Below, one piece after another: positions 1-532 of a DNA stretch of 532 bases (its first letter is position 1; each line of letters starts with the position of its first letter). The position numbers and the translations under genes were made by a program. The DNA is from a phage. The stretch is from the sequence record EF517005.1; one strand, written 5' to 3'. The notes under the pieces were generated by a model, which did not search any database, was not told the DNA's origin, and saw only the letters and a program-made list of their open reading frames with translations.

Positions 1-532
1 GCTTCGGTCGTATCCGTGACCTTGAAGCTAAGCACTTCAAGAAAAACGTTGAGGAACAACTCAACAAGCGCGTAGGGCACGTCTACAAGAAAACATTTAT
101 GCAAGTTGTCGAGGCTGACATGCTCTCTAAGGGTCTACTCGGTGGCGAGGCGTGGTCTTCGTGGCATAAGGAAGACTCTATTCATGTAGGAGTACGCTGC
201 ATCGAGATGCTCATTGAGTCAACCGGAATGATTAGCTTACACCGCCAAAATGCTGGCGTAGTAGATCAAGACTCTGAGACTATCGAACTCGCACCTGAAT
301 ACGCTGAGGCTATCGCAACCCGTGCAGGTGCGTTGGCTGGCATCTCTCCGATGTTCCAACCTTGCGTAGTTCCTCCTAAGCCGTGGACTGGCATTACTGG
401 TGGTGGCTATTGGGCTAACGGTCGTCGTCCTCTGGCGCTGGTGCGTACTCACAGTAAGAAAGCACTGATGCGCTACGAAAACATTTACATGCCTGAGGTG
501 TACAAAGCGATTAACATTGCGCAAAACACCGC
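1..532 (+). CDS. 1: Partial (internal) CDS of a T7-like phage single-subunit DNA-dependent RNA polymerase, covering approximately residues 150-327 of the T7 RNAP numbering; truncated at both window edges
   Basis: Frame 3 (codons at 3-5, 6-8, ...) is open over the whole window. The translation FGRIRDLEAKHFKKNVEEQLNKRVGHVYKK...GISPMFQPCVVPPKPWTGITGGGYWANGRRPLALVRTHSKKALMRY...PEVYKAINIAQNT matches the T7 RNA polymerase N-terminal domain as recalled from memory, with 5 of about 176 residues different. E222 (GAG, 216-218) and P266 (CCG, 348-350) are in their wild-type state. No start or stop codon in frame, so both gene ends lie outside the window. The symbol '1' is the T7 gene number, not a bacterial-style gene name. 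Confidence 0.95.
240..287 (+). other. Sub-region of the RNAP CDS encoding the promoter-intercalating beta-hairpin (approximately residues 230-245 in T7 numbering: HRQNAGVVDQDSETIE here)
   Basis: Positional mapping onto T7 RNAP numbering from the translated frame. The hairpin's function (duplex opening, Val237 stacking on the template) is established knowledge for T7 RNAP. The exact hairpin boundaries are approximate and given from memory. Confidence 0.6.

Follow-up and report, generated by a model that had tools for sequence, protein, structure and literature searches.

The window, that is, the whole 532-nucleotide stretch of DNA analysed here, is a fragment of the known T7 RNA polymerase (RNAP). 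Judged from its sequence, it belongs most probably (probability roughly 0.7) to a T7 gene 1 allele of laboratory type that arose by mutagenesis; G238D would be one of its five missense hits, placed by chance in the promoter-opening hairpin. As far as the searched collections and literature go, the allele has not been described; it is a point-mutant form of a known protein, loaded with mutagen-type changes, and it represents no new kind of feature.

Identity and placement of the window

The window was compared by megablast with phage records, E. coli genomes and plasmids. All 532 bases were aligned to wild-type T7 and DE3 at 98.9% identity, with six mismatches and no gaps, and no record closer than these (526/532 bases) was found in the three sets. 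The search of 50,697 phage records gave 221 matches; the best of them, all listed wild-type T7 and DE3 records among them, stood at 98.9%. The same 98.9% full-length match was obtained in 28 E. coli (DE3)-type chromosomes, and the plasmids gave no match to the window. The aligned span is NC_001604 positions 3619–4150, within the gene 1 (RNA polymerase) CDS at 3171–5822, and takes in a part of the N-terminal domain together with the beginning of the thumb region. The catalytic palm residues D537 and D812 and the specificity loop (739–770) lie beyond it.

The only frame open from end to end begins at base 3, the first base of codon 151, and continues for 176 codons with no stop. Query residues 1–176 were aligned to residues 151–326 of PDB T7 RNAP chains (1aro_P, 1cez_A and others), with the Asp facing Gly238, which independently confirms the codon numbering. 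The RPOL_N domain (Pfam PF14700) was matched at 51.7 bits against a cut-off of 30.1. Near-identity, collinearity, reading frame and RPOL_N thus agree in identifying the protein. Both strands of the window were searched against Rfam with no match. An overlapping feature on either strand was considered and rejected, as Rfam was empty and the open reading frames on the other strand and in other frames are short, lie inside gene 1 and are unsupported.

Relative to the wild-type enzyme (NP_041960; PDB 1CEZ, 1QLN and 1ARO), 526/532 nucleotides and 171/176 residues are the same. The reading frame, the hairpin length, V237, R231 and the flanking strands are unchanged; the differences are A181T, V227I, G238D, D310N and V311I and one silent change (Table 1).

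Table 1. Features of the window, with positions counted from its first base
Feature	Position	Strand	Basis
T7 gene 1 internal fragment, nt 449–980, codons 150 (partial) to 327 (partial)	1..532	+	megablast, CDS annotation, Pfam, PDB chains
Codon 181, GCA>ACA, A181T, G→A at 93	93..95	+	T7 alignment
Codon 227, GTT>ATT, V227I, G→A at 231; strand entering hairpin	231..233	+	T7 alignment
Intercalating beta-hairpin, codons 230–245, HRQNAGVVDQDSETIE; wild type HRQNAGVVGQDSETIE	240..287	+	literature range, alignment numbering
Codon 237, GTA = Val, unchanged; -5 base pair stacking residue	261..263	+	sequence; stacking from literature
Codon 238, GAT = Asp (wild type GGT = Gly), G→A at 265	264..266	+	sequence, T7 alignment, PDB chains
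Codon 261, CTG>TTG, Leu silent, sole coding-strand C→T, at 333	333..335	+	T7 alignment
Codons 310–311, GAC GTT>AAC ATT, D310N and V311I, G→A at 480 and 483	480..485	+	T7 alignment

The six differences and their origin

The window departs from wild-type T7 at six sites, each of them a G:C→A:T transition; on the coding strand, G→A is read five times and C→T once. Of these changes five are missense and one (L261) is silent, and their density is 1.1%. For a natural control, 76 IMG/VR loci encoding related RNAPs were assembled, and the 15 with ≤80 differences from T7 in the segment were used. These carry 25–65 differences each; pooled, they give 174 distinct variant sites, of which 148 (85%) are synonymous and 26 non-synonymous, and 52/174 (30%) are G:C→A:T. 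Under this natural pattern, the probability that six of six changes are G:C→A:T is about 7e-4, and that at least five of six are non-synonymous is about 4e-4.

Many natural phages are 94–99% identical to T7 in this region, and one of them (L009; IMGVR_UViG_638277131_000001) also has the silent L261 change, the only one of the six changes to be found in a natural relative. Descent from a natural T7-like lineage, with ordinary divergence as the source of the differences from reference T7, is nevertheless highly improbable, given that the relatives differ at many more sites, mostly synonymous ones and with a mixed spectrum. The five missense variants are also absent from all 76 IMG/VR loci. Exact matches were sought and none was found for the G238D-spanning 27-mer or the D310N/V311I 30-mer (IMG/VR, GTDB genomes and JGI metagenomes), or for the A181T pattern or V227I in T7 sequence context (both IMG/VR). 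In the literature search neither G238D nor any of the other four substitutions was found in connection with T7 RNA polymerase or RNAP, and the sole 'G238D' match in a supplement concerned E. coli mutL and was irrelevant. A known engineered variant was rejected as an identification, there being no match in the searched literature.

Six G:C→A:T changes in 532 bases, mostly missense and unlike those of natural relatives, give the allele the look of a mutagen-derived one, as judged from six sites only. Among the possible G:C→A:T changes in the window 64% are missense (67% with stop codons left out), so five missense changes in six are what unselected G:C→A:T mutation is expected to give (P = 0.36). 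The base 5' of the mutated G was a purine, which MNNG is expected to favour, at 5/6 sites against a background of 46% (binomial, P about 0.08, not significant), and the strand ratio of G→A to C→T was 5:1 (P = 0.135, not significant, from six sites only). EMS, MNNG and 2AP strongly raise G:C→A:T, and C→T is what deaminases produce (PMC4633624). On the proposed course of events, a wild-type T7 sequence would have gained the six changes through an alkylating agent (MNNG or EMS), hydroxylamine or a cytidine deaminase, and G238D would most simply be one random hit among several.

A mutagenised bacterial chromosome would carry changes at a far lower density than 1.1%, a figure that suits mutagenesis targeted to a gene or the growth of a small phage genome in the presence of a mutagen. 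T7 populations grown in MNNG reportedly reach a few hundred mutations per genome, a similar order of density, and the MNNG-mutagenised T7 said to have been described by Springman et al. in 2010 is a candidate kind of source. The two G→A changes that give D310N and V311I lie 3 nt apart in adjacent codons, which processive deamination, alkylation or chance could explain.

Distant homologues were collected by HMMER from 1.84 billion cluster representatives (716 matches; 150 proteins were taken, and the 146 spanning the hairpin were aligned). All five substituted residues were found at their own aligned columns in some homologue: Thr at 181 in 16/146 representatives, Ile at 227 in 42/146 (and in Pektosvirus), Asp at 238 in 5/146, Asn at 310 in 32/146, where it is the commonest residue, and Ile at 311 in 8/146. 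The mean BLOSUM62 score of the five missense changes is 1.2 vs -0.18 for random G:C→A:T missense changes (P about 0.03), with G238D the least conservative (-1). The conservative set of changes, together with the occurrence of the same residues in homologues, is a hint that function was under some selection in this allele, and the enzyme probably still works.

The same observations bear on an artefactual origin, in which cytosine-deamination damage, sequencing or assembly errors, or in-silico changes would have been laid over a wild-type T7/DE3 template. A set made up of G:C→A:T alone is the signature of a deaminated template too, T7 RNAP/DE3 DNA is a ubiquitous laboratory sequence, and the missense variants occur in no other record of the collections scanned. 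An artefact is improbable all the same: a missense set that is conservative beyond the random expectation is not what damage or random editing would give, changes due to damage rarely become fixed in a consensus assembly at 1.1% of sites and, as weak evidence, no stop arose though 14/272 possible G:C→A:T changes create one.

Two of the other substituted positions have features of their own. V227I is reportedly included in a commercial thermostability patent list, and the pairing of Ile227 with Asp238 also occurs in Pektosvirus (LITID...AGQADKD). Ala181 is unvarying in 48/48 distinct close-relative proteins and variable in distant ones; A181T adjoins K180, at which K180E is reported to reduce dsRNA by-products (bioRxiv 10.1101/2024.05.23.595468).

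Position 238 and the hairpin tip in relatives

The preliminary description had placed an Asp codon, in the position of a Gly, directly beside an intact Val237 in the promoter-opening hairpin. Both parts are borne out. GAT rather than GGT, adjoining GTA, is read in the sequence and in the T7 alignment, and the PDB chain alignment together with the literature range sets residue 238 within the hairpin next to Val237. The hairpin and its role are textbook matter; its range is given in the literature as residues 230–245 or 232–242/243, with V237 stacked on the -5 base pair. Residue 238 is one residue off the midpoint of the 232–242 range. An AF2 model of the fragment put residues 233–240 in a loop between strands 227–232 and 241–246, at low confidence (mean pLDDT 45, six-sequence alignment). 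The net charge of the T7 hairpin is -2 (D240, E242) and becomes -3 with G238D, and distant homologues average +1.7.

Among the IMG/VR loci, Gly238 is unvarying in the nearest clades to T7, namely the T7 group, the T3 group with AGNAGSD, and the two intermediate lineages L018 and L024. In two loci (L071 and L072), the Pectobacterium phages PP81 and PPWS4, the sequence reads AGQADKD, which places Asp opposite 238 with no gap in the alignment. PP47 is identical to PP81 over 525 compared bases, and the more divergent MA1A and MA6 have AGQADKD too; Asp occupies the 238-equivalent in 5/5 isolated Pektosvirus phages checked (PP81, PP47, PPWS4, MA1A and MA6). The Pektosvirus RNAPs have a hairpin of the same length as that of T7 and, like the window, Ile at 227 (in PP81, PP47 and PPWS4 and in MA1A and MA6). 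They differ in being about 59% identical to the window protein, in recognising other promoters and in the surroundings of the Asp, with Ala at 237 where T7 has Val, neighbours Q236 and K239, and the tip QADK vs VVGQ in T7. On this comparison the fold accepts Asp at 238, which does not show that T7 RNAP accepts it.

In another clade of the HMMER set, Lys is found at the 238-equivalent (AGNAKLD). Column 238 of the 146 distant representatives holds N in 24, K in 18, G in 18, T in 9, R in 9, A in 7, P in 7, S in 6 and H in 6, with gaps in 29. The hairpin tip is hypervariable in length and sequence across this set, and columns 232–242 contain at least one acidic residue in 83/146. The preliminary description had let its case depend in part on whether Asp is common at this position in functional T7-like polymerases; it is present, in 5/146 representatives plus Pektosvirus, without being common.

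Val237 is itself not conserved, being Ala in T3-like (AGNAGSD) and Pektosvirus (AGQADKD) proteins (loci L019–L023, L071 and L072). A large group at about 62% identity (IMG/VR loci L025–L069 and L073–L077), of K11/KP32-like appearance, has three more residues in its hairpin and an acidic tip (KNKMADGSDDVTSMQM); hairpin length and charge thus vary even among the close relatives recovered. The matches of a word-indexed protein search were limited to five incomplete T7-like RNAP sequences, which are filed under Streptococcus danieliae, Xylella fastidiosa and Klebsiella pneumoniae and are probably phage DNA in bacterial assemblies. In the 50%-cluster library, the top representative was 63% identical (P0001, partial) and the best near-full-length ones 49% (P0006) and 52% (P0008), as if the library were without the T7, T3 and K11 clades.

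Possible effect of G238D on promoter opening

Random replacements of residue 238 were already covered by earlier published work, in which a saturation library of G238 yielded G238L (Mut13), whose RNA yield was not different from wild type when assayed by in vitro transcription yield only, at high enzyme and template concentrations (bioRxiv 10.1101/2024.05.23.595468). Mut18 (K8N/Q232L/N233D/E242D/N488D) from the same work showed clearly reduced transcription, for which its authors blame the three hairpin substitutions; hairpin changes are therefore not uniformly neutral. At the neighbouring residue, Q239K, Q239L and Q239R were recovered in functional SPACE-/PACE-evolved polymerases (PMC11720261). 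These variants resemble G238D in changing the hairpin at or adjoining its tip, and none of them is G238D. Hairpin mutants were also studied by Brieba & Sousa (2001) and Stano & Patel (2002), according to whose titles elongation and pre-melted promoters were unaffected.

Gly at 238 is not required, as Asp is found there in Pektosvirus and Lys in another clade, the tip is varied and G238L is active. The preliminary description had gone on to propose that an acidic side chain at this site could alter promoter melting, promoter strength or selectivity. Its structural premise stands; the case for Asp as a notable functional change is weakened by the natural Asp and Lys, the yield of G238L and the random-type set of mutations in which it occurs.

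An effect of G238D on promoter opening is plausible and probably mild. Asp238 would replace a probable turn glycine and put a third acidic residue on the hairpin face that wedges into the DNA. Most likely the open complex would be modestly destabilised on duplex promoters, with weaker binding and more sensitivity to salt as the visible signs, while elongation and transcription from pre-melted promoters would be expected to be unaffected, as published for other hairpin mutants. On our analysis a mild or neutral phenotype is to be expected on balance, a clear duplex-specific defect is a doubtful but serious second prospect, and changed selectivity is improbable. The known specificity determinants, such as residue 748 and the 739–770 loop, are outside the window. 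Because Gly238 is unvarying in the closest clades and the Pektosvirus neighbours differ, Asp238 in the T7 context could do more harm than the Pektosvirus precedent suggests.

G238D might instead have been selected as the functionally important change, in a screen or evolution experiment for promoter melting, lower toxicity or selectivity, the other changes having come along as passengers or helpers. Its site in the promoter-opening hairpin next to V237, the unvarying Gly238 of the T7 and T3 clades and its BLOSUM62 score, the lowest among the missense changes, would suit such a history, as would the recurrent substitution of the neighbouring Q239 in PACE/SPACE evolution towards new promoters and the clear loss of transcription with the hairpin triple Q232L/N233D/E242D within Mut18. 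Selection is unlikely, however: nothing sets G238D apart from the five other transitions of the same type, no link to T7 RNAP was found in the searched literature, G238L equals wild type in yield, and Asp is native at this position in Pektosvirus. Slightly less likely still is a selected change that retunes promoter opening, made up of G238D by itself or of G238D and V227I, which sits at the hairpin base, and recovered in a mutagenesis campaign that the searchable literature does not yet describe; such retuning could, for example, give an attenuated, less toxic T7 RNAP or an altered dependence on duplex stability or on the -5/-4 sequence.

On present evidence the check comes out negative: the window is an ordinary T7 RNAP fragment with a mutagen-type load, its hairpin substitution falls at a naturally variable position that a saturation library has already sampled, and it is no discovery. 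Should G238D measurably alter promoter melting, it would add a minor entry to what is already a well-developed structure-function map of this hairpin, and it may then offer a handle on expression strength or on the salt sensitivity of in vitro transcription.
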